A DNA stretch of 64,000 nucleotides, taken from contig NZ_JAUNRW010000002.1 of assembly GCF_030535495.1 (NCBI RefSeq), positions 3,654 to 67,653 on the forward strand, given 5' to 3'. Both the position numbers and the translations under genes were made by a program. Shown here piece by piece: positions 2,397 through 59,296 of the stretch; position 1 is the first letter of the stretch; each line of letters begins with the position of its first letter. The notes beneath the pieces were generated by a model. It did not search any database. It was not told the DNA's origin and saw only the letters and a list, made by a program, of their open reading frames with translations. The DNA is from Corynebacterium sp. (GTDB lineage: Bacteria > Actinomycetota > Actinomycetes > Mycobacteriales > Mycobacteriaceae).

Positions 2397-4319
2397 CTAG
2401 ATGTCGACCGGGTAGTCCTTCTCCTCGATCCGCGGATCGATGCGCTCTTCCACGAAGATGCCGTGCCAGACCATGAATGCCAGGACGGTCCACAGGCGAC
2501 GGGAATGATCGGAGATGCCGTCGCGGTGCTCCTTGAGCATCTCCAGCACCGCCTTGCGGTCGAAGATGTCGTCGGTCTGGGACTGCGTGATGGTGTCCTG
2601 GGCCCAGCCGAAGAGTTCGTCGCCGGCCAGCCAGTGACGCATGGGCACCGGGAATCCCAGCTTCTTCCGGTGCAGGACATGCGGCGGGACAATCTGCTCC
2701 ATCGCCTTGCGCAGGGCGTACTTCGTGGTGCCCCCGGCGATCTTCAGATCATGCGGAATGGTCTGCGCGACCTTGAACACCTCCTTGTCCAGGAAGGGGA
2801 CGCGCAGTTCGAGGGAGTTGGCCATGTTGATCTTGTCGGCCTTGACCAGGATGTCACCGCGCATCCAGGTGAACAGATCCAGGTGCTGCATGCGGGCCAC
2901 GGGGTCCATGTGCCGTGATTCGGCGTAGATCGGGGCGGTGACCTCCTTGTGGTCCCACTCCTCCTTGGCCCACGGCAGCACCCGCTGCATCTGCTCGAAA
3001 TTGAAGGAGCGGGCGTTTCCGTAGTAGCGCTCCTCCATCGTCATGGATCCGCGGTCCAGGAGGGACTTGCCCTTCATCCCGTCGGGCAGGATGCGGGAGA
3101 GGCGGCCGAGCCCGCGGCGCAGGGGAGTGGGTACCTTCTCGAAGGCGGCGAGGGACAGCGGCTCCTTATAGATGGTGTACCCGCCGAAGAGCTCATCGGC
3201 ACCCTCGCCGGAGAGCACGACCTTGACGTGCTTGCGGGCTTCCTGGGCGACGAAGAACAGCGGCACGAGGGAGGGGTCGGCGACCGGGTCGTCGAGGTAC
3301 CACATGATCTTCGGGATCGCGTCGGCGTACTCCTCCGGGGAGACCACCTTGACGATGTGCTCCACCCCGATCGCGGCCGCCGACTCCGCGGCGACATCGA
3401 CCTCGGAGTACCCCTCCCGCTCAAAGCCGGTGGTGAAGGTCAACAGGTTCGGGTTGTGGCGCTTGGCCAGGGTGGCGATGGCGGTCGAGTCGATGCCGCC
3501 GGACAGGAAGGATCCGACGGTGACGTCGGCACGCATGTGCTTTTCGACGCTGTCCTCCAGCGCCCGGGCGATCCGGTCGAAGAGATCCTGCTCGGAGCCC
3601 TTCGGGACCGGGGTGACCTCGAAGCGCGGCCGGAAATAGCGCTTGGCCTCGACGGTGCCCCCGGGGCGCAGGGTGGCGGTGCATCCGGACTCCAGGCGGC
3701 GGATCTCGGTGTGCAGGGACTCCGGTTCCGGCACGTACTGCAGGTCGACGTAGTGCTCGATGGCGCGCCGGTCAAGGTCCAGGCCGAGACCGAGCTCGGG
3801 GGCCATCTCCAGGATGGACTTCTTCTCGGAGGAGAAGACCGTCCCGGCCGCGGTGGTGGCGTAGAACAGGGGCTTGATACCGAACTGGTCCCGGGCCACG
3901 AACAGCACCTTCTCCTGGGTGTCCCACACCGCGAAGGCGAACATGCCGCGCAGATGCTCGACGACGTCCTCGCCCCAGTGATGGAATCCGACCACGATGG
4001 TCTCGGAGTCGCCTTCCGTGTGGAACTGGTGGCCGGCGGCGCTCAGTTCCTCCCGCAGCTCAATGTAGTTGTAGATCTCGCCGTTGAAGATGAGGGCGTA
4101 GCGCTCGGGGTTGTCCTGCGGACCCCAGACCAGTGGCTGATGGGAGTGCTCGAGGTCGACGATGGACAGGCGGTTGAAACCGAAGACGACGTCGTCGTCG
4201 TGCCAGGTGCCGGCGTCGTCGGGTCCGCGATGGCGCATGCACGGCAGCGCCCGGGTGACGGAGTCGACGAAACCAGCGGCCTCACCGCGGGCGGTGAGCA
4301 GGCCTAGAAAACCGCACAT
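2397..4319 (-). CDS. ltsA: Glutamine-dependent amidotransferase, AsnB family (LtsA, envelope amidation)
   Basis: N-terminal MCG Ntn motif, HRGPD, FNGEIYNY, LSGGIDS, SGEGADELFGGY; 640 aa; usual position next to ctaC. Confidence 0.93.
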   Translation of the reverse strand: MCGFLGLLTARGEAAGFVDSVTRALPCMRHRGPDDAGTWHDDDVVFGFNRLSIVDLEHSHQPLVWGPQDNPERYALIFNGEIYNYIELREELSAAGHQFHTEGDSETIVVGFHHWGEDVVEHLRGMFAFAVWDTQEKVLFVARDQFGIKPLFYATTAAGTVFSSEKKSILEMAPELGLGLDLDRRAIEHYVDLQYVPEPESLHTEIRRLESGCTATLRPGGTVEAKRYFRPRFEVTPVPKGSEQDLFDRIARALEDSVEKHMRADVTVGSFLSGGIDSTAIATLAKRHNPNLLTFTTGFEREGYSEVDVAAESAAAIGVEHIVKVVSPEEYADAIPKIMWYLDDPVADPSLVPLFFVAQEARKHVKVVLSGEGADELFGGYTIYKEPLSLAAFEKVPTPLRRGLGRLSRILPDGMKGKSLLDRGSMTMEERYYGNARSFNFEQMQRVLPWAKEEWDHKEVTAPIYAESRHMDPVARMQHLDLFTWMRGDILVKADKINMANSLELRVPFLDKEVFKVAQTIPHDLKIAGGTTKYALRKAMEQIVPPHVLHRKKLGFPVPMRHWLAGDELFGWAQDTITQSQTDDIFDRKAVLEMLKEHRDGISDHSRRLWTVLAFMVWHGIFVEERIDPRIEEKDYPVDI

Positions 4320-47093: not shown

Positions 47094-47109
47094 CGACAGT
47101 GTTCTCCAC

Positions 47110-47150
47110 CCGGTGGGGGTAGCGCATCCGCGTTACCCCCACCGGTTTTT
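47110..47150 (+). terminator. Intrinsic terminator after divIVA
   Basis: CCGGTGGGGGTAGCGC / GCGTTACCCCCACCGG stem followed by TTTTT. Confidence 0.85.
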
Positions 47151-47214
47151 CTGCTTCTCCGGGTAGGGCGCGGTAAGTTTTGTACAACCAACTACCCGCC
47201 TGGAAGGCTCACAA

Positions 47215-49995
47215 GTGCAACGTCTGGAATACGTCACCGAGTTCGGGGATATTGCCGACAGCAGCCAGGCGGAGAAGCGGCTGAAAGTCGTCCTGGTCCG
47301 CGCCAATGCCGGACATGGCAAGACATTCCTGCTGGCCGCCTGCCGGGACTCCTTCACCGGACTGTCACTGACGCTGGATGTCGATGCGCTCGACGCCGAC
47401 ATCCCCGGTTACGCTGCGGATAAGCTGGCGGAACTGCTGGGCGTGGCATGGACGGATGCCGGTTCCGAGCCCGCGATGGCACGCGATCTGGCCACCGCGC
47501 TGAGTTCCCGTGGTCCCCAGGTGCTGCTTATCGACGACGCCCACTGGATCGACGAGCTCTCCTCCCGGATCCTGTGGCGTACGCTGCGCCAACTGGTGGA
47601 CTATCCGGTGACCGTCGTGGTGGCCTTCCGTCCGTGCGACAATTTTCTGGTCCAGCGACTCACCCGCCAGCTCTCCGATCACACGCTCGGCGCGATCATT
47701 GATCTGCAGCCCTTCACCCGCGAGGACATCCGCCAGCTGCTCGATCGGCGCTTCCGTCTCGACGCCTCCGACCGCGTGGTCAGCCGCATCCTCGAACTCA
47801 CCGACGGGATCCCCCTGCATGTCGGCCTCATCGCAGAGCGGATGGTCCGGGGAGACGGCACTCTGTTGGGCGACGTCACCTCCGCAGGAGGAGGTCTGTT
47901 GGAGGGCATCGCCGACTGGTGGGAGGACACCAGTGCGGCGACGCGCAGGGCCGTGGAGGTCGTCTGTGTGGCCGAGGTCGGTCTCCACAGCCATGAGCTG
48001 CAGCAGGTCCTCGACCTGTGGGGTCAGACCGTGCCGGCCATGAGGGAGCTGCGGGCCAACTGCCCCGCCCTGAGCATCACGTCGGGTGGAGTGATCCGTC
48101 CCCGCAATGCACTGGTGGCCGCCGCTTTGCGTGAGACGCTGCCGAGCGACTACACCCGTGATATCCACCGCGTGCTGGGGGAGGTGCTCTCGGGTGAGGA
48201 GGCGTTGTATCACCGGATTCGCGCCGCAGACGACAACATCGCGCCCCTGGCGCAGGAACTGCGCGCCGCAGGGGAGGCCGAACTGGCGGCGGGGCGGTAC
48301 CGCCAGGCCGTCGGCCTGGCCCGCCGACTCCTCGACACGGTTCGGGACGTCGACTCCCTGCGCCTGACGTACCTGGCGGCGGTCCGGGGCGGGATGGTGT
48401 CCGAACTGACCTACCTGCAACCTCACCTCGGACGGGTTCCCTTCCCCCTGCTGCGGGGTGCGTGCCAGACCCTCATTGCCGCCGCTCTCGATGACGCCAC
48501 TGCGGTGGCCGAGCACTTCGGCGAGATCGCCTCCCTCGACCACGCCGACGAAGCGATCACCGACCGCCTCTTGCGCGGTTATGCCGCCACCGAGTTCGTC
48601 CGCGTCATGTCCGCGTACTTCCGTTTCGATCTCATCATCCCCATGACGGCGGGGGTCCTGGCGGATCTCGATTCCCTCGCCGACACAGGAAGCGATGAGG
48701 TGGCCAGGGAAGCGGCGATCCTGGCGGCGTTGATCCGGAAGTTCGTCGAGACCTCACACACCTCCCCGGAGCACACGCTCGCGTCGATGAGCACACTCCA
48801 GGAGATCGTCGACGGACTCGCGACCTTCCCTGATACGCGGGACGCACAGCTGTCCCTGCTGTCGGCGCGCGGATCGATCGCCTGCAACGTGGGGCTGTTC
48901 GAAGAAGGACGGAAGGATCTGGAGGCCGCGGCACTGGCGCCGAAAGGTCACGTCAACTGGCAGATGCAGTCCCGGATCGCGCTCTCCCACATCTACTTCG
49001 AGAACGGGCAGTGGGACGACGTCGTCCAACTCCTGCGCTCCGGCCTGGGAGACGCCCTCGACATCCTCTCCGACCCCGCGCCGCTGGCCGCCTATGCCAC
49101 TCTGGGGGCCGTGCACTCCGGGCGGGGCGACGTGACGGAGGCGCAGGCACACCGCCGGATCATCGACTCAGTGGAGGACCAGCAGCTGGCCGCCTATGCC
49201 GCGGCGGAATCGCTCTGGGCTCTGGTGTGGACCTGGCAGTTGACCGGTGATGAAGACACCATCGCGCCGACGGTGGTGGCGGCCTACCCCGGTTTCCAGT
49301 TCAATTCACTGCTGTGGACTTTCGCCGGTCCGGCCGCTGTGGCAGGGATGGTGCGGGCGCTCATCGCGGCCGATCGGATGGACGACGCCGCGGCCCTGGT
49401 CGCCTCTGGATTGTCAGCCTTGTGGGTGGAACCCGAGGTCAGCGCTTACGTGGACGCACACTCCCGGGCGCTGCTCGATCTGGCGCAGGGCAGGGCGGAC
49501 CGGGCCTTCCAGGACCTCATGGCCCTCCACGGCCGCTTTGCCGCCCACGCCGAGTCCGTGCGGGCGGGCCGACTCATCGTGGCGATGGTGGCTCTCGATG
49601 CCGCCCGTGCCTGGCTGGCCGGTAGCCGTGAGCCCGAGGTGACGGGGCTGCGGGCCGCCCTCGACGCGGCCCGGTTGCTGGCCCTGCGGGTCGGTGCGCT
49701 GCCCCTGCTCGGGATGATCCATGATCTGGACGAGGCGTTGGCCACCGAAGCCCCGGAGGCGAGCCCGGTCGCTTCTCCGGCGTCGCCGCTTTTCGATTTC
49801 ACCCAGCTCACTGCCCGCGAAAGAGAGATCTCCTACCTGGTGGGTCAGGGGCTGAGCAACCAGGAGATGGCGGAGCAGCTGTTCCTGTCCGTGCGCACCG
49901 TGGAGTATCACGTCTACAACGCGACCCACAAGCTCAATCTCTCGTCCCGCGTTGAGCTGCGCCGCCTCGTCCGGGACGGCTTGTCGCTGAACTAG
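47215..49995 (+). CDS. Large ATP-binding LuxR-family (LAL/MalT-type STAND) transcriptional regulator
   Basis: P-loop ANAGHGKT, Walker B VLLIDDAHWID, long helical middle region, C-terminal LuxR HTH LTAREREISYLVGQGLSNQEMAEQLFLSVRTVEYH; SD GGAAGG; 926 aa. Confidence 0.88.
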   Translation: MQRLEYVTEFGDIADSSQAEKRLKVVLVRANAGHGKTFLLAACRDSFTGLSLTLDVDALDADIPGYAADKLAELLGVAWTDAGSEPAMARDLATALSSRGPQVLLIDDAHWIDELSSRILWRTLRQLVDYPVTVVVAFRPCDNFLVQRLTRQLSDHTLGAIIDLQPFTREDIRQLLDRRFRLDASDRVVSRILELTDGIPLHVGLIAERMVRGDGTLLGDVTSAGGGLLEGIADWWEDTSAATRRAVEVVCVAEVGLHSHELQQVLDLWGQTVPAMRELRANCPALSITSGGVIRPRNALVAAALRETLPSDYTRDIHRVLGEVLSGEEALYHRIRAADDNIAPLAQELRAAGEAELAAGRYRQAVGLARRLLDTVRDVDSLRLTYLAAVRGGMVSELTYLQPHLGRVPFPLLRGACQTLIAAALDDATAVAEHFGEIASLDHADEAITDRLLRGYAATEFVRVMSAYFRFDLIIPMTAGVLADLDSLADTGSDEVAREAAILAALIRKFVETSHTSPEHTLASMSTLQEIVDGLATFPDTRDAQLSLLSARGSIACNVGLFEEGRKDLEAAALAPKGHVNWQMQSRIALSHIYFENGQWDDVVQLLRSGLGDALDILSDPAPLAAYATLGAVHSGRGDVTEAQAHRRIIDSVEDQQLAAYAAAESLWALVWTWQLTGDEDTIAPTVVAAYPGFQFNSLLWTFAGPAAVAGMVRALIAADRMDDAAALVASGLSALWVEPEVSAYVDAHSRALLDLAQGRADRAFQDLMALHGRFAAHAESVRAGRLIVAMVALDAARAWLAGSREPEVTGLRAALDAARLLALRVGALPLLGMIHDLDEALATEAPEASPVASPASPLFDFTQLTAREREISYLVGQGLSNQEMAEQLFLSVRTVEYHVYNATHKLNLSSRVELRRLVRDGLSLN

Positions 49996-50609
49996 TCGGC
50001 GGCCACCCACAGTTCCAGCGCCCGACTGCCGTGGACGACGCTGCCGTAGTCGTTGGTGCCGGTCACCCTGGTGATGACGGTGAGCACCCACCCGGCGGTG
50101 TCGTCCGCAGCGCGCGGCAGCTGCAGGGCGTCGATGAACGAGGACGGTTCCGTGACGGAGTAGCCGCTGAGATCCTGGCTGCCGTCGGAAAGCACGCTCA
50201 TATCGCCTGTCGGCTCGAGAGCGTTGTTGACGGGCTGGGCGTAGACCGTCAGGGTGGTCAGCGTGACTCGGTCAGTCGAGCGCGGCACCAGCGACACCCG
50301 GATCATGGCGATGGGGGAGTCGAGGTTCGGGACGTCCGTCCAGGTGCTCACCCGCAGCTCATGTCCTGAGACGTCGGTGATGACCTCGGTGGGCGGTGGG
50401 GGCAGAACCGGCTCCGGAAACGTCGGCAAGCTGAAGGTGGGGCGCTCCCGGGGGATGGCCGCTACCTGGGTGTCGACGCCGTCCACCGGGGTGGACAGGG
50501 CCGGGACGGGGAAGGCACTGCGCATCAGCGACGAGATCTCCGGGGTGGAGCACGCCGACAACGGCATGCACACCGCGAGCGCGAGGCAGGCGAATCGTAG
50601 GCGGTTCAT
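49992..50609 (-). CDS. Lipoprotein of unknown function
   Basis: ATG 50609 after SD GGAGA; basic N-terminus, hydrophobic stretch, lipobox LSAC; Pro-rich linker then a beta-rich domain; 205 aa. Confidence 0.75.
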   Translation of the reverse strand: MNRLRFACLALAVCMPLSACSTPEISSLMRSAFPVPALSTPVDGVDTQVAAIPRERPTFSLPTFPEPVLPPPPTEVITDVSGHELRVSTWTDVPNLDSPIAMIRVSLVPRSTDRVTLTTLTVYAQPVNNALEPTGDMSVLSDGSQDLSGYSVTEPSSFIDALQLPRAADDTAGWVLTVITRVTGTNDYGSVVHGSRALELWVAAD

Positions 50610-50641
50610 GGGTCTCCCATCAGGGCAACGGTTGGTTCTTA

Positions 50642-50753
50642 GGGGTAGTACAGCCACTGGTCATGCGCGGCGCAAGGGAAACCCGGGGAAACCGGTAGCG
50701 GTCCCGGTAGTGGGGAAGACTCCCGTAGTTTTCCCCGTACTAGTTTCCTCCCC
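50642..50753. repeat. Cluster of short SSGTAG and GGGGAA/TTCCCC repeats in the lipoprotein-GT2 divergent promoter
   Basis: GGGGTAG 50642, CCGGTAG 50692 and 50704, CCCGTAG 50722, CCCGTAC 50734; TAGTTTTCCCC and TAGTTTCCTCCCC. Confidence 0.55.
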
Positions 50754-50783
50754 GAAATGTGTTCTGCGGCATATCTTTCTGGC

Positions 50784-52244
50784 ATGACCACTCCCGACAC
50801 CACCGCTCCCTCGACCGACGTGAGCACCATCGACCCGGACAATCACTTCCTCACCTATGCCCCCCAACGCGCAGCCGAGGTGGAGGTGTACCGTGCGCCC
50901 TCGATCGTGGCCTGCATCATTCCCGCCTACAACGAGGAATCCACCATCGCGGCGGTCCTGGAATCCGTCCTGGCGCAGTCGCGGCTTCCCGACGTCGTCC
51001 ACGTCGTGGTGAACAACACCACGGACGACACCTACTGGATCGCCCGTGAGTACTGCGGACGTCACGACATCGACTACCGCGGCGTACAGCAGTCGACCGA
51101 GATCTTCATCCACGACGTCGGCCGCATGGCCGACCGCAAGGTCGGTGCCCTGAACTACGGATTCGATCTGCTCGGGGAGGACGTCGACTACGTCATCGGC
51201 GTCGACGGTGACACCACCCCGCATCCCAAGGCCTTCGAACGTCTGCTGGCGGAGGCGGAGTCGGACTCACGCATCGGTGGTGTCAGCGCCATCTACAGTA
51301 TCGACACCCACGGGCACCGAGGGCCGATCGCCAACTTCCTCGTCGTCGGTCAGCGTGCGCAGTTCGCCTCCTTCACACTGCTCAACCTGTGCCGCGGCCG
51401 CAACATGGCGGTGCTCGGAGGGCAGTGTTCCATCTTCTCCGCGCGCGCCCTGCGCCATGTCAAGCAGTCCTACAACCAGAAGACACCCTGGGTCAACGAT
51501 TCGGAGGTGGAGGATTCGCTGCTCAGCCTGCAGATCCGGTCGGCCGGCTATCTGACGAAGATCTCCAGCACCGCGCGCGCCGACGTCGGCGGAATGACCA
51601 CTCTTCGGGCCCTGGACGCCCAGCAGGTCAAGTGGAACTACGGGGCGATCGACCTCATGTGGCCCGGGGAGCGTGGAAACCTCCGCGGCCAACCGTTCCA
51701 TCCCAACCTGCGGCTGCGCTGGTACGAAAACATCGAGATGCTCCTCAACTTCGTCGTCCGTGTCGGCTTCGTCCTGCTGCTCTTGGCCTCGCTGTCCATC
51801 GGTGCCTTCAGCTTCCAGTGGTGGTGGCTCATTCCGCCGGTGCTGGCGACCCTGCTCAACCTGCGCGTGGCACTGACCATGGAGAATCGGACCACCAAGG
51901 ACATCCTCTTCGCCCTGTTGTTCTTCCCGGCGGAAATCTACATGTGGATCAAGATAGGCCACTTCCTCCGTGCCTGGACGCGATTCCTCTCCCGGGTGAA
52001 CACGGACAACTGGGGTGATCAGGCGAAGGCGGAACAGGGCAAGGGTGGCTGGAAGTATCTCGGGCCCCTGCTGGCACTGGTCATCGTGGTCATCATCGCC
52101 GTCGGTATGTGGCTGAGCATGCCCACCAACGCCCAGGTCATCGCGCTGTGGATCGGCTGGCCGATCCAGGCGGCGGTGACGCTCATCCTGTGTCTCATCA
52201 TGGTCCGCCGCCTGACGCGGCGACAGTACGGCTACCGTGTATAA
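50784..52244 (+). CDS. GT2 processive-type membrane glycan synthase (D,D,D,QxxRW-like)
   Basis: IIPAYNEE, KVGALN, DGD, EVED, QQVKW, then about 4-5 C-terminal TM helices; ATG 50784 with -10 TATCTT 6 nt upstream. Confidence 0.85.
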   Translation: MTTPDTTAPSTDVSTIDPDNHFLTYAPQRAAEVEVYRAPSIVACIIPAYNEESTIAAVLESVLAQSRLPDVVHVVVNNTTDDTYWIAREYCGRHDIDYRGVQQSTEIFIHDVGRMADRKVGALNYGFDLLGEDVDYVIGVDGDTTPHPKAFERLLAEAESDSRIGGVSAIYSIDTHGHRGPIANFLVVGQRAQFASFTLLNLCRGRNMAVLGGQCSIFSARALRHVKQSYNQKTPWVNDSEVEDSLLSLQIRSAGYLTKISSTARADVGGMTTLRALDAQQVKWNYGAIDLMWPGERGNLRGQPFHPNLRLRWYENIEMLLNFVVRVGFVLLLLASLSIGAFSFQWWWLIPPVLATLLNLRVALTMENRTTKDILFALLFFPAEIYMWIKIGHFLRAWTRFLSRVNTDNWGDQAKAEQGKGGWKYLGPLLALVIVVIIAVGMWLSMPTNAQVIALWIGWPIQAAVTLILCLIMVRRLTRRQYGYRV

Positions 52245-52245
52245 T
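52237..52245 (+). promoter_or_regulatory. ileS promoter -10 element overlapping the GT2 stop codon
   Basis: GTG-TATAAT (hexamer 52240-52245) about 40 nt upstream of the T-box. Confidence 0.65.
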
Positions 52246-52282
52246 CGCCGATGTCTGTCCCGTCTTTCCGGCGGGCAACACG

Positions 52283-52417
52283 CCATGATCCGGCCATCAC
52301 CGGGGAGCGTCTCCGGAAGAACAGCCCGTGGGGCCCAGTAGAACCGGATCACCATGAACGAAGTGGGGTGCCGTGGCACCCAAGCAGGGTGGTACCGCGC
52401 AGCACATGCGTCCCTGC
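52283..52417 (+). ncRNA. Ile T-box riboswitch (actinobacterial translational type)
   Basis: Short stem I GATCCGGCC-ATC-ACCGGGGAGC with Ile specifier ATC at 52296, AGTA/GAA S-turn elements, T-box AAGCAGGGTGGTACCGCG, GCAGGG / CCCTGC pairing. Confidence 0.92.
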
Positions 52418-52449
52418 ACCGCCTGTCCCGTTCGTGAGTGAAGGAAGAT

Positions 52450-56432: not shown

Positions 56433-57803
56433 ATGCAACGCTGGGTTCTCCACATCGACATGGACGCGTTCTACGCCTCCGTCGAGCAGCTGACCCGGCC
56501 GACCCTCCGCGGCCGCCCCGTGCTGGTGGCGGGGGTGTCCGGCAGGGGAGTGGTGGCCGGTGCCAGCTACGAGGCCCGCAGATTCGGCGCCCGTTCCGCC
56601 ATGCCCACGCACCAGGCCGCGCGCCTGGTCGGATTCTCCGCGGTGCTGGTCGCGCCGCGGAAGGCGGTGTACGCGGTGGCGTCGAGACGCGTCTTCGAGC
56701 TCATCTCCTCCCACGTCGGGCTGGTGGAGCAACTGTCCATCGACGAGGCCTTCATGGAACCCGAGGCCCTGGTCGGCGCCACCCCCGCCGAGGTCAGACA
56801 GTGGGCGGATGAGCTCCGCGCACTCATTCGGGAGGAGACGGGATTGCCGTCCTCCATCGGTGCCGGCACCGGCAAGCAGTACGCCAAGATCGGCTCCGGA
56901 CGGGCGAAACCCGACGGTACCTTCGTCATTCCCGGCGACACGCAACTGGAGATCCTCCATCCCATGCCCGTCTCCGAGCTGTGGGGCGTCGGCCCGGTCA
57001 CCCGCACCAAACTCTCCCAGATCGGAGTGGAGACGATCGGGGATCTGGCCGCCCTGACCCCGAAGGAGGTCGAGATCTCCCTCGGCGGCACCGTCGGCCC
57101 TGGTCTGTGGGCTTTGGCCAACGGTATCGACGAGCGCCCCGTCGAACCGCGCGCCGAGGCCAAGTCCATCTCCGCCGAGTACACCTACCCGCGCGATCTG
57201 ACGACGCGCCCGGAGGTCGACGCCGCCATCACCCGCGCCGCCGAGGCCGCCCACCGGCGCCTGCTTATCGACGGCCGCGGCTCCCGCACCGTCACCGTCA
57301 AACTCAAGATGTCCGACTTCCGGATCGAGTCCCGCTCCGCCACCCTTCCCTATGCCACCGACAACTACGACACTTTGCTGGCCACCGCTTTCCGGCTGGT
57401 GCGCTACCCCGGCGAGGTGGGGGCGATCCGGTTGGTGGGTGTCGGTTTCACCGGACTGGAGACCGCGCAGCAGGATGTGCTCTTCCCGGAACTCGACCAG
57501 CAGGTGGTGGTGGCCAGCCCGGATGATGATTTCGAGACCGGGGTCAGCGATCACATCGTCGAACCTGTCGTGGAGGTGGAGGAGGAGGACACCGGCTGGC
57601 GGGCCACCCAGGATGTGTTCCACCCGGACCACGGGCACGGCTGGGTACAGGGCACCGGACACGGGATCGTGTCGGTACGTTTCGAGACGCGCGCTACCGG
57701 GCCGGGCAGGACCCGCACCTTCGCTGTGGACGATCCCGACCTCCGTCCGGCCGACCCCGTGGCCAGTCTGGCCTGGGACGAGTGGCTGGAAAAGCAGGAC
57801 TAG
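56433..57803 (+). CDS. dinB: DNA polymerase IV (actinobacterial DinB1/DinX with C-terminal extension)
   Basis: HIDMDAFYASVE, ASYEAR, SIDEAF, AKIGS..KPDG; C-terminal DVFHPDHGHGWVQG..VRFET. Confidence 0.95.
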   Translation: MQRWVLHIDMDAFYASVEQLTRPTLRGRPVLVAGVSGRGVVAGASYEARRFGARSAMPTHQAARLVGFSAVLVAPRKAVYAVASRRVFELISSHVGLVEQLSIDEAFMEPEALVGATPAEVRQWADELRALIREETGLPSSIGAGTGKQYAKIGSGRAKPDGTFVIPGDTQLEILHPMPVSELWGVGPVTRTKLSQIGVETIGDLAALTPKEVEISLGGTVGPGLWALANGIDERPVEPRAEAKSISAEYTYPRDLTTRPEVDAAITRAAEAAHRRLLIDGRGSRTVTVKLKMSDFRIESRSATLPYATDNYDTLLATAFRLVRYPGEVGAIRLVGVGFTGLETAQQDVLFPELDQQVVVASPDDDFETGVSDHIVEPVVEVEEEDTGWRATQDVFHPDHGHGWVQGTGHGIVSVRFETRATGPGRTRTFAVDDPDLRPADPVASLAWDEWLEKQD

Positions 57804-59200
57804 AAGGGAGGAGGGTCCTCGTCCGGCGGTGCCCGGTGGTGTACGAGCACCGGATCATAGGGTGTCGGTGCGCCCCGAGGCTGGTTGGCCGCCTGGTAAC
57901 GCTCGAACTCCTCGGCGGCGGCCTTGGCGGCGGCTCGCTTCCGGGCGGTGGCGGTGCGCTGCGCAAAGGTGCTCACCCACCGTCGCTGCCGCGGGGCCAG
58001 GGGGCCGGTGGCCAGGTCGACGGCGTAGGTACCGTCGGCGAAGTGCCAGTAGACGTCCCCGGTGACCGGATCCAGCAGATAGGTCACCTGCTGGTCCGTC
58101 TTTCGGTTGTGGTGGTGCCGACACAACATGACCATGTTGTCGGCCCGGGTGGGGCCGCCGTCCTCGTGGTTGATGCGGTGGTCAGCGTCGAGGTGGGTGG
58201 CCTGCGCGTTGCAGCCGGGCCAGCGGCAGATCCAGTCCCTACCGATGATGAAGGCGCGCTGGGGGAACGTCATGTCGTGAGGGCCCGTCTCCATGTCCTG
58301 GGCGGCATCCATGTCGAGGGTGCGGGTGACCATGTCCGCGAGCGTCGCCGCAGCCTCCTCGCTGAGGATGCCGGTGGTCGGGTGGTAGACGGGAGAGTCA
58401 TCGACGTCGGAGGCGGTGTAGAGGAGAGTGTTGACGTTGATCGACGCCGGTTCCAGCACCTGCTGGACCAGTGCTGTCGCCTTGTCGACGCCCTTGGTGC
58501 TGGCGGCCTGGAAGATGGCGTCGGTCATCAGCACTCCCGTCGCCTCGTCGACCGTGAGGGAGAAGTTCATGCGGCCATCGTCGAGGGACTCGATGAACAG
58601 ACTGGAGATCTTGGCTGCGTCATCCACCGGGGGCAGACTGCGCATGGTGGCTGCCGGGTCCTCACAGGGGACGGGGCCGTCCTCGGTCTCGGGAGCCGGG
58701 GCACCCCACGGAGAGGGGACCTGTGGGGCAGCCTTCGCGGTCACGCTGGCGATGGTGTCGGCGACGGTGTTGTTGATCGTGCGGGTCCCCGGCAGTAGTT
58801 GCTGGGGCCGCTTCGGGGTGAACAGCGCGATGAGATCCTCATCGAGGCACCGCCAGGTGAAATCATCCTGCTGCACCTCGACCGGTGCCTTGGTGATGGC
58901 CTTGTCGATGACCGACAGGTGGTAGAGATCGAGGAGGTAGGTCTCCCTGATGAGAGCCCGGAGGCGGGGCAGCTTGTCCAGGGTCTCCAGCGCGTGGAAG
59001 TTGCGGGAGATGATGGACTTCGCCATCCCGGTGTCCCGGTAGAGCATGGTGCACACGGTCGTCCAGTCCTCCTCCGAGGCGAGCTCGGTGACGGGCCGGA
59101 GGATGCGCCAATACTCGTATTCGGCGGCAATGCGCGCACGGCGGGCTTGTGAGTAGAGGCTGCCGGAATTGAGGACGGACCAGGATGCGGGCTGGGACAT
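57800..59200 (-). CDS. HNH endonuclease, DUF222 / 13E12-repeat-like family (start 59200 or 59209)
   Basis: RDWICRWPGC..DADHRINHEDGGPTRADNMVMLCRHHHNRKT C-terminal HNH domain; Pro-rich EDPPPF tail. Confidence 0.85.
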   Translation of the reverse strand: MSQPASWSVLNSGSLYSQARRARIAAEYEYWRILRPVTELASEEDWTTVCTMLYRDTGMAKSIISRNFHALETLDKLPRLRALIRETYLLDLYHLSVIDKAITKAPVEVQQDDFTWRCLDEDLIALFTPKRPQQLLPGTRTINNTVADTIASVTAKAAPQVPSPWGAPAPETEDGPVPCEDPAATMRSLPPVDDAAKISSLFIESLDDGRMNFSLTVDEATGVLMTDAIFQAASTKGVDKATALVQQVLEPASINVNTLLYTASDVDDSPVYHPTTGILSEEAAATLADMVTRTLDMDAAQDMETGPHDMTFPQRAFIIGRDWICRWPGCNAQATHLDADHRINHEDGGPTRADNMVMLCRHHHNRKTDQQVTYLLDPVTGDVYWHFADGTYAVDLATGPLAPRQRRWVSTFAQRTATARKRAAAKAAAEEFERYQAANQPRGAPTPYDPVLVHHRAPPDEDPPPF

Positions 59201-59296
59201 GGGGATCACCCCCCTTCGATCGTGTGTCGTTCATGCGTTCGAATGTCACGATAGACGGCACCCCGGACATGGGGGTGATCCTCGGGGGTAGGGCGC

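Follow-up and report, generated by a model that had tools for sequence, protein, structure and literature searches.

A three-gene island in a Corynebacterium genome

This study concerns a gene for a synthase-like membrane glycosyltransferase of family 2 (GT2) in a Corynebacterium genome, together with the two genes that accompany it. The DNA analyzed, referred to here as the window, is the whole 64,000-nucleotide stretch at positions 3,654 to 67,653 of contig NZ_JAUNRW010000002.1 (assembly GCF_030535495.1). Within the window, an inserted island of approximately 5.2 kb (47094..52275), located between the divIVA stop codon and the T-box leader of ileS, carries three genes: a 926-amino-acid (aa) regulator with STAND/AAA and LuxR-type (GerE) domains, assigned through Pfam matches and synteny with Georgenia (47215..49995, forward strand); a 205-aa partner lipoprotein, counted from the ATG at 50609 and recognized by a profile match and a lipobox reading LSAC (49992..50609, reverse strand, with the reading frame open up to a GTG at 50657); and the GT2 gene itself (50757..52244, forward strand). 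Four same-strand copies of the motif CCSGTAS lie in the divergent promoter region between the last two genes (50692..50740, forward strand).

Sequence motifs and family distribution of the glycosyltransferase

The GT2 gene is a single, intact open reading frame (ORF) encoding 495 aa; a second in-frame ATG at position 50784 would yield 486 aa, the length of the identical database entry. A first-pass annotation of the same DNA had placed the gene at 50784-52244, and translation confirmed both this frame and all six of the motifs named there, i.e., IIPAYNEE (residues 54-61), VVNNTTDD (84-91), KVGALN (128-133), DGD (150-152), EVED (250-253) and QQVKW (289-293). Pfam assigned the protein to Glycos_transf_2 (PF00535, E = 3.9e-18), with additional matches to Glyco_tranf_2_3 and Glyco_trans_2_3 (PF13641 and PF13632). 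No NCBIfam family was reached at its cut-off, and the matches to PgaC, HpnB, CruG, NodC and the XrtG- and XrtP-associated glycosyltransferases all fell far below theirs.

An alignment of 36 sequences sharing 56-63% identity revealed invariant blocks at P56-E60 (PAYNE), N86, N87 and D90 (NNxxD), K128-N133 (KVGALN), G148-T153 (GVDGDT), D248-S257 (DSEVEDSLLS) and Q289-W293 (QQVKW, the Lys included), and relatives at 27-38% identity retained Q[QR]xKW. The first aspartate motif reads N86-N87-T-T-D90, with the leading Asp replaced by Asn and the trailing Asp retained, and some relatives at 27-35% identity have D-N-x-T-D at this place. The DxD motif for metal and diphosphate (G148-V-D150-G-D152-T) and the TED motif of the catalytic base (S249-E-V-E252-D253, profile-aligned to the TED of the cellulose synthase BcsA) are both present and invariant. 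The QQVKW motif sits on a helix spanning residues 283-301; its Gln and Trp are kept, and Lys stands in for Arg in every family member and in the distant relatives as well. This substitution, already flagged in the first-pass annotation, is a fixed family trait to judge from the aligned sequences, and reads as a conservative variant of the canonical motif.

More than 1,200 database proteins matched the glycosyltransferase, the best of them 56-63% identical and bearing generic names; most came from Microbacteriaceae, and others from Georgenia, Nocardioides and Propionibacteriaceae. In an exhaustive search of 1.8 billion cluster representatives, no more than 81 clusters reached E ≤ 1e-30, and 289 (50%-clusters) reached E ≤ 1e-10, so that the family is compact and stands well apart from the large synthase families. 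In a one-genome-per-species collection, we found at least 580 stretches holding a family member; Microbacteriaceae associated with plants and soil account for the bulk of them, and Nocardioides, Propionibacteriaceae, Georgenia and Sanguibacter for others. Four full-length relatives at 33-45% identity (P0127, P0135, P0149 and P0153) have lost the catalytic signatures, with ASEH in place of AYNE, for instance, and HEVRR, REVTR or QPRIN in place of QQVKW; these proteins look like inactive paralogues from their sequences.

Homologs at 27-33% identity occur in Lactobacillus phages (Lb338-1, T25, LpeD and Lbab1), in Microbacterium, Arthrobacter and Brevibacterium phages, and in Kineococcus. The protein gp65 of Microbacterium phage TinyMiny (L093, 2558-3634), 358 aa in length, keeps PAHNE, DAD, TED and QRMKW, along with the first two transmembrane (TM) helices, the third interface helix (IF3) and a W..Q.KAE loop. 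This 358-aa form adjoins DNA-replication genes in the actinophages.

Structural modeling and alignment with solved synthases

To explore the glycosyltransferase from a structural perspective, AlphaFold2 was run on the GT2 family alignment and the resulting model (pLDDT of 81.3, pTM of 0.79) was compared with the Protein Data Bank (PDB) using Foldseek. A structural comparison with polysaccharide synthases had been proposed as a check in the first-pass annotation; it returned, over approximately 500 columns each, hyaluronan synthase (HAS) from Chlorella virus (E = 2.6e-14, TM-score of 0.53-0.55), the chitin synthases of yeast, Phytophthora and Candida, Xenopus HAS1 and BcsA as the top matches, with TM-scores ranging from 0.45 to 0.55 across them.

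In the model, residues 1-46 are disordered and not conserved, and a GT-A domain (residues 48-300) is followed by four TM helices on which model and hydropathy agree (324-347, 355-374, 432-454 and 457-487). A cytosolic amphipathic helix (380-412) and a loop (413-431) lie between the second and the third of these, both ends of the protein are cytosolic, and the tail reads RRQYGYRV. Where the earlier estimate was about four to five TM helices, model and hydropathy give four; the statement that no N-terminal TM helix precedes the catalytic domain agrees with model and hydropathy, neither of which places one before residue 320. The protein ends eight residues past its last TM helix, without a C-terminal PilZ domain. 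Moreover, neither a PilZ domain nor a CE4 (carbohydrate esterase family 4) deacetylase (PF01522) was found anywhere in the 90.7%-complete assembly, with positive results in control genomes, which extends to the genome what the first-pass annotation had reported for the window. The assembly encodes a single GGDEF protein, located elsewhere.

Profile searches placed the C-terminal half of the protein more specifically. A single-sequence search of the PDB gave just one marginal, N-terminal match, to GpgS, and a profile of the C-terminal half built from the narrow family (A6) gave zero matches. A profile of the same half, from the TED motif onward, built from diverse relatives (A7) matched BcsA only in the whole PDB, i.e., the Rhodobacter enzyme (5ej1, E = 2.4e-6) and that of E. 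coli (E = 2.5e-4). In this register, sEvED falls on TED and QrvKW on QRGRW, with K292 equivalent to R382; the first GT2 TM helix, with its conserved Arg, falls on the helix after QRGRW in BcsA (here named TM5); PaEiY falls on SEVYE of IF3; and W419-G-D-Q422-A-K424-A-E426 falls on the gating loop R-F-A-V-T-A-K-D-E, with Lys and Glu retained and with Trp and Gln standing in for Phe and Thr, respectively. The W, Q, A and E of this gating-like loop are invariant in the 36-sequence alignment. On the strength of this register and of the model, the GT2 protein is the counterpart of the TM5-8 core of BcsA, without the N-terminal TM helices or PilZ. The full-length Foldseek matches and the BcsA-specific C-terminal profile are in line with the processive-type membrane GT2 that had been proposed from the sequence; polymerization, processivity and export of the product are inferred.

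A lipoprotein as the conserved partner

In the four loci first compared, a protein of 216-250 aa without a Pfam domain adjoins the GT2 gene. After 80 further loci had been added and their six-frame ORFs searched with a profile seeded from the Georgenia lipoprotein homolog, a lipoprotein homolog was found within 6 kb of the GT2 gene in 80 of the 85 loci, mostly immediately upstream and divergent. The same profile matched the lipoprotein ORF of the window (49995-50657, reverse strand) with an E-value of 2.1e-14. The first-pass annotation had described a stand-alone enzyme with no visible partners—a description overturned by this conserved neighbor and, in the clade of the window, by a STAND-LuxR regulator of around 930 aa that travels with the pair.

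The large majority of the lipoprotein homologs have a canonical lipobox, usually with G-(T/A)-P-P-W next to it. In the window, the lipoprotein comprises the lipobox, a Pro-rich tether and an all-beta domain of roughly 130 aa, modeled by AlphaFold2 (pLDDT of 73.6) with eight strands at residues 74-203. No Pfam or NCBIfam match was obtained for it, a jackhmmer search started from the window's own sequence recovered only itself, and Foldseek returned generic beta-sandwiches alone (ApaG, arrestin and one carbohydrate-binding module [CBM] with an E-value of 0.013); the fold matches being generic, no function was drawn from them. This protein may, in the manner of BcsB, receive or guide the polymer.

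Regulation and two clades of the system

Neighbor clustering of 83 GT2 loci showed that the type of regulator co-varies with the GT2 tree. The six most widely shared clusters were the GT2 protein, a response regulator, a histidine kinase, the lipoprotein, a glycoside hydrolase of family 6 (GH6) and a degenerate GGDEF protein. In most loci of Microbacteriaceae and Nocardioides, and in Sanguibacter, the usual module comprises a HisKA kinase (60 loci), a degenerate-GGDEF protein (48), the lipoprotein, the GT2 protein, an OmpR-type response regulator (62) and a GH6 enzyme (49). In this sister clade the GH6 protein is about 340 aa long, has an N-terminal membrane anchor (a lipobox in a few loci) and Pfam E-values of 1e-56 to 1e-59, and is encoded two genes away from GT2; in the two genomes tested it is the sole GH6 of the genome. 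The response regulators are unusually long (330-390 aa), with a non-conserved linker of 70-130 residues between receiver and winged helix (e.g., L002 9579-10565 and L004 10369-11535). The degenerate-GGDEF protein, polytopic and about 390 aa in length, is encoded between the kinase and the lipoprotein (e.g., L007 4019-5170, L013 3894-5069 and L010 2841-4013). An active cyclase was rejected as its function, as GG[DE]EF occurred in none of the 48; it could be a PelD-like receptor of cyclic di-GMP or a non-enzymatic scaffold.

The window belongs elsewhere. A maximum-likelihood tree placed its GT2 protein, with support of 100/99, in a five-row clade together with Georgenia and two Propionibacteriaceae (the LuxR clade). 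All members of this clade have a STAND-LuxR regulator of about 900-940 aa and the lipoprotein, and none has the kinase, response regulator or GH6 genes; in Georgenia and the two Propionibacteriaceae, the same three genes as in the window form the complete module. In Georgenia sp. Z1344, the regulator-lipoprotein-GT2 locus appears on two contigs (10 and 9; L005 and L006) with identical in-locus coordinates and match scores, reflecting either a true duplication or assembly redundancy. Since the GH6, kinase and response regulator are missing from the LuxR clade, the universal core of the system, on the gene content of the compared loci, is the lipoprotein and the GT2 protein.

The regulator of the window has a GerE domain at residues 864-917 (E = 7e-15) and an N-terminal AAA_22/AAA_16 region. 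Aligned end to end, it shares 28% identity with the 936-aa regulator that occupies this position in Georgenia, and its best local matches are the GT2-adjacent regulators of the two Propionibacteriaceae loci (139 and 131 bits). It is likely the controller of the divergent lipoprotein/GT2 pair. The four CCSGTAS copies in the promoter region fall within 49 nucleotides on one strand, at spacings of 12, 18 and 12 nucleotides; with a background of 37 matches per 64 kb over both strands, this density is far above chance level. The spacers upstream of GT2 in the LuxR-clade loci L001, L032 and L061 contain one or two exact copies plus near-variants, and the sequence CCCGGTAGTGGGG is common to the window and L032. 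The repeats are a candidate operator of the STAND-LuxR regulator.

Insertion site and genomic flanks

Comparison with same-genus genomes revealed how the island sits in the chromosome. Window matches in this region were limited to 45.6-47.09 kb and 52.27-53.4 kb, and the divIVA-ileS spacing in those genomes is only some 80-255 bp. In Corynebacterium pollutisoli and C. nasicanis, divIVA and ileS are separated by a 255-bp gap in otherwise identical synteny; alignment with both species shows that the likeness stops past the divIVA stop codon (47093) and returns at approximately 52270-52283, where the ileS T-box leader starts. The island was inserted between divIVA and ileS. The host is closely related to these species, with IleS identities of 95% to C. 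pollutisoli, 94% to C. nasicanis and 93% to C. humireducens, and the GT2 gene is absent from 18 sampled genomes of the genus, 12 of the order and the nearest named species. The best explanation is that the three genes entered this Corynebacterium, a strain close to C. pollutisoli, together through horizontal transfer. No flanking direct repeats, integrase, transposase or other mobility genes were found at the island edges, and a plasmid search gave a single distant match, in Lacticaseibacillus. Within the island, a sigma-70 promoter scan and an Rfam search at gathering score both returned nothing.

The left edge is marked by a terminator-like hairpin after divIVA (47110..47145, forward strand), a 16-bp stem followed by TTTTTC; the terminator that C. 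pollutisoli and C. nasicanis have here reads differently. On the right, a T-box leader with a shortened Stem I (52276-52418, forward strand) precedes ileS; it matches RF00230 with 48.3 bits (E = 5.7e-10) against a gathering score of 93, and contains the canonical AGGGUGGUACCGCG box. As this leader begins 32 nucleotides after the GT2 stop codon, the island directly abuts the regulatory region of ileS. The final GT2 codons and stop (52234-52244) read CGTGTATAAT, which holds a perfect TATAAT hexamer some 30 nucleotides upstream of the T-box and closely resembles CGTGTATAGT, which C. pollutisoli and C. nasicanis have in the corresponding position ahead of ileS; it may be an ileS promoter, either retained or a replacement, or it may mark a microhomology junction. 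Farther downstream, an HNH/DUF222-like gene (57800-59209, reverse strand) lies between dinB and an asparaginase gene. It is present at the same place in both relatives, and is therefore resident and outside the island.

Proposed function and mechanism

Taken together, these results make it probable that the GT2 protein is the catalytic subunit of a synthase-dependent system for a surface beta-glycan, with a new minimal architecture and belonging to an uncharacterized actinobacterial family. A cellulose-like beta-1,4-glucan is the leading candidate for the product, and we put it forward tentatively. In the mechanism we propose, the cytosolic GT-A domain would use a nucleoside diphosphate sugar, with NNxxD and KVGALN binding the nucleotide, D150 and D152 the metal and the diphosphate, and D253 of EVED serving as the catalytic base. 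W293 of QQVKW would offer a stacking platform to the acceptor end of the nascent chain, with K292 replacing the diphosphate-binding Arg of BcsA, and the chain would be lengthened sugar by sugar and pushed through a passage formed by the four TM helices and the interface helices. Like the FxVTxK loop of BcsA, the W419-x-x-Q-A-K424 loop would gate the active site. The lipid-anchored beta-sandwich lipoprotein would be the obligatory partner on the outside, and the STAND-LuxR regulator would turn on the divergent pair, probably via the CCSGTAS repeats.

A number of observations weigh against a polymer-exporting beta-glucan synthase. No solved synthase has as few TM helices as the four of the GT2 protein, whose TM-scores are only about 0.5, and a continuous transmembrane channel is putative. 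The first aspartate motif reads Asn, and the Arg of the acceptor motif reads Lys. No export route across the mycomembrane of Corynebacterium is visible. No GH6 gene was found in the window genome or in the three other LuxR-clade genomes, in a search with a valid positive control, so the beta-1,4 assignment is borrowed from sister-clade relatives at 56-62% identity; by analogy with what has been proposed for CslZ, the GH6 partners may also act on peptidoglycan. The branch leading to the window protein is long (0.88), in fact the longest in the family tree. Finally, our literature search found no paper describing the family and no biochemical or genetic datum on any member, and the family falls outside the coverage of an operon survey (PMC7112194).

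Alternative interpretations

The most serious alternative, which we consider unlikely though clearly worth weighing, is a non-exporting glycosyltransferase of minimal fold. Such an enzyme would transfer one or a few sugars onto a polyprenyl-phosphate-linked glycan, a glycolipid, a lipoglycan or a wall polymer, as in the case of PcManGT, or make short intracellular oligosaccharides, as in the case of NodC, and the lipoprotein would be a downstream acceptor or handler instead of a channel partner. The archaeal PcManGT (6yv7), which has the same minimal fold and is not a polymer exporter, gave a significant Foldseek match with the highest target-normalized TM-score (0.58-0.61) and a profile match of 1.5e-12; this sequence match, however, is confined to the N-terminal Rossmann part. 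The presence of only four TM helices, none of them N-terminal, agrees with such an enzyme, but the QxxKW helix, IF3 and the gating loop lie in the conserved BcsA register. The Microbacterium, Arthrobacter and Brevibacterium phage homologs keep the motifs and the W..Q.KAE loop and stop before the last two TM helices, and phage membrane glycosyltransferases usually modify existing surface glycans. Given this truncation and the PcManGT match, glycosylation of a membrane-proximal acceptor stays a live rival for members of the superfamily. The lipid-directed HpnB and CruG are also among the weak NCBIfam matches. Conversely, the extracytoplasmic partners—the lipoprotein and, in the sister clade, the anchored GH6—favor a product outside the membrane, and the conserved neighbors include no flippase or GT-C partner, although no search was aimed at flippases.

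A synthase of a polymer containing N-acetylglucosamine (GlcNAc), i.e., of the poly-N-acetylglucosamine (PNAG), chitin-like or hyaluronan-like type rather than a glucan synthase, is improbable in our view. It could claim the name 'PgaC' given to homologs in their source annotations, the best NCBIfam match (PgaC_IcaA), the HAS and chitin synthases at the top of the structural matches, and the activity that GH6 enzymes can have on beta-1,4 glycans of the chitin or chitosan type (PMC9040799). Set against this, TIGR03937 scored 33.9 bits versus a cut-off of 422.3, so the PNAG (IcaA/PgaC) class considered in the first-pass annotation does not hold, and NodC scored 19.4 versus 550. The assembly lacks a CE4 deacetylase, there is no IcaD/PgaD-like partner, as had been remarked for the window, the conserved neighbors include no small protein with two TM helices, and the C-terminal-half profile matches BcsA alone, and neither HAS nor the chitin synthases. 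More improbable still is an acquired remnant that is non-functional in this Corynebacterium. The long branch would fit decay, as would the absence of the GH6 and two-component helpers of most relatives and of an evident Shine-Dalgarno sequence before either GT2 ATG. All three ORFs are intact, however, with a host-like GC content at third codon positions of 0.83-0.86. The GT2 protein also keeps 170 of the 182 alignment columns in which the other 82 sequences show at least 97% conservation; its 12 deviations, mostly conservative and all outside the catalytic motifs, are on par with the 8-15 changes of other LuxR-clade members, in some of which, as described above, the same three genes are a complete module. 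Finally, an extension of the beta-glycan synthase reading—speculative, and somewhat less likely than the non-exporting enzyme—is that the family represents an unrecognized architectural class, with a four-helix, PilZ-less core marked by Q[QR]xKW and W..Q.KAE that needs the lipoprotein, and probably oligomerization, for a translocation path. Truncated versions with two TM helices would then be acquisitions of actinobacteriophages and Lactobacillus phages, perhaps used in remodeling the host surface during infection, and the core pair would move between actinobacterial orders as a self-contained cassette under either STAND-LuxR or two-component/degenerate-GGDEF control.

Relationship to known systems and implications

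Judged by the partners and domains that define the BcsA, PgaC/IcaA and CslA-GlxA families, the GT2 protein falls outside all three, and in its presumed working it is most like the catalytic core of BcsA. The BcsA enzymes (Rhodobacter sphaeroides 4HG6, 4P00 and 5EJ1, and E. coli) are the sole PDB family matched by the C-terminal profile and are also matched at full length by Foldseek. Unlike them, the window protein has neither TM1-4 nor a C-terminal PilZ domain, nor BcsB, BcsC or BcsZ (GH8) partners; in particular, no BcsB-like neighbor was found by Pfam searches of the window proteins or by neighbor clustering. It has Lys for Arg382, Trp and Gln for the gating Phe and Thr, and Asn for the first Asp, and the similarity is marginal, at 30 bits. 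The class I HAS enzymes of Chlorella virus and vertebrates and the chitin synthases are its best whole-length structural matches (E-values of 1e-14 to 1e-11, TM-scores of about 0.5), and HAS is a single-subunit polymerase-exporter. In contrast to the GT2 protein, those enzymes carry TM helices at the N-terminus, gate with a WGTR-type motif and use GlcNAc-containing substrates; they are 12-16% identical to the GT2 protein, whose C-terminal half matches none of them by sequence profile.

PcManGT of Pyrobaculum calidifontis (6YV7), which we take to be a mannosyltransferase with a 'minimal cellulose-synthase-like fold', resembles the window protein in fold and profile and in its GT-A domain followed by C-terminal membrane helices only. 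It differs in being archaeal, 345 aa long and engaged in N-glycan assembly rather than polymer export, with a sequence match limited to the nucleotide-binding half. In the single-gene synthases of Gram-positive bacteria (HasA, Cps3S and Tts/Gtf, the latter from P. freudenreichii), a GT2 protein polymerizes and exports its product without dedicated export genes; unlike the window protein, these enzymes carry TM helices at the N-terminus and the canonical QxxRW, and they work without an obligatory lipoprotein. The CslA-GlxA-CslZ(-LpmP) apical glycan system of Streptomyces is likewise built around an actinobacterial cellulose-synthase-like GT2 protein without PilZ, and the sister clade shares its pairing of GT2 with an anchored GH6. 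Streptomyces CslA pairs with a small membrane-tethered GH6 without a CBM, CslZ being a GH6 lipoprotein (PMC9040799). The present family differs in its partner, a beta-sandwich lipoprotein of an unnamed family, and in the lack of GH6 from the clade of the window; no GlxA-type copper radical oxidase or lytic polysaccharide monooxygenase is among its conserved neighbors, with no search aimed at GlxA.

These comparisons bear on a small field. To our knowledge, only a few Gram-positive systems secrete polysaccharides in a synthase-dependent way, i.e., Ica/PNAG, Pel, HasA and Streptomyces CslA. The GT2 family described here has the smallest BcsA-like core seen so far, and thus a tractable one for asking which parts of a synthase polymerization and translocation need, as well as what the lipoprotein contributes in place of BcsB. 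The window shows that a regulator, a lipoprotein and a synthase suffice as a transferable unit, and that a Corynebacterium, with its mycolates, can receive it. Should the product indeed be a cellulose-like glucan, Actinomycetota would have in this family a second way, unrelated to the first, of making surface polymers of the cellulose type.

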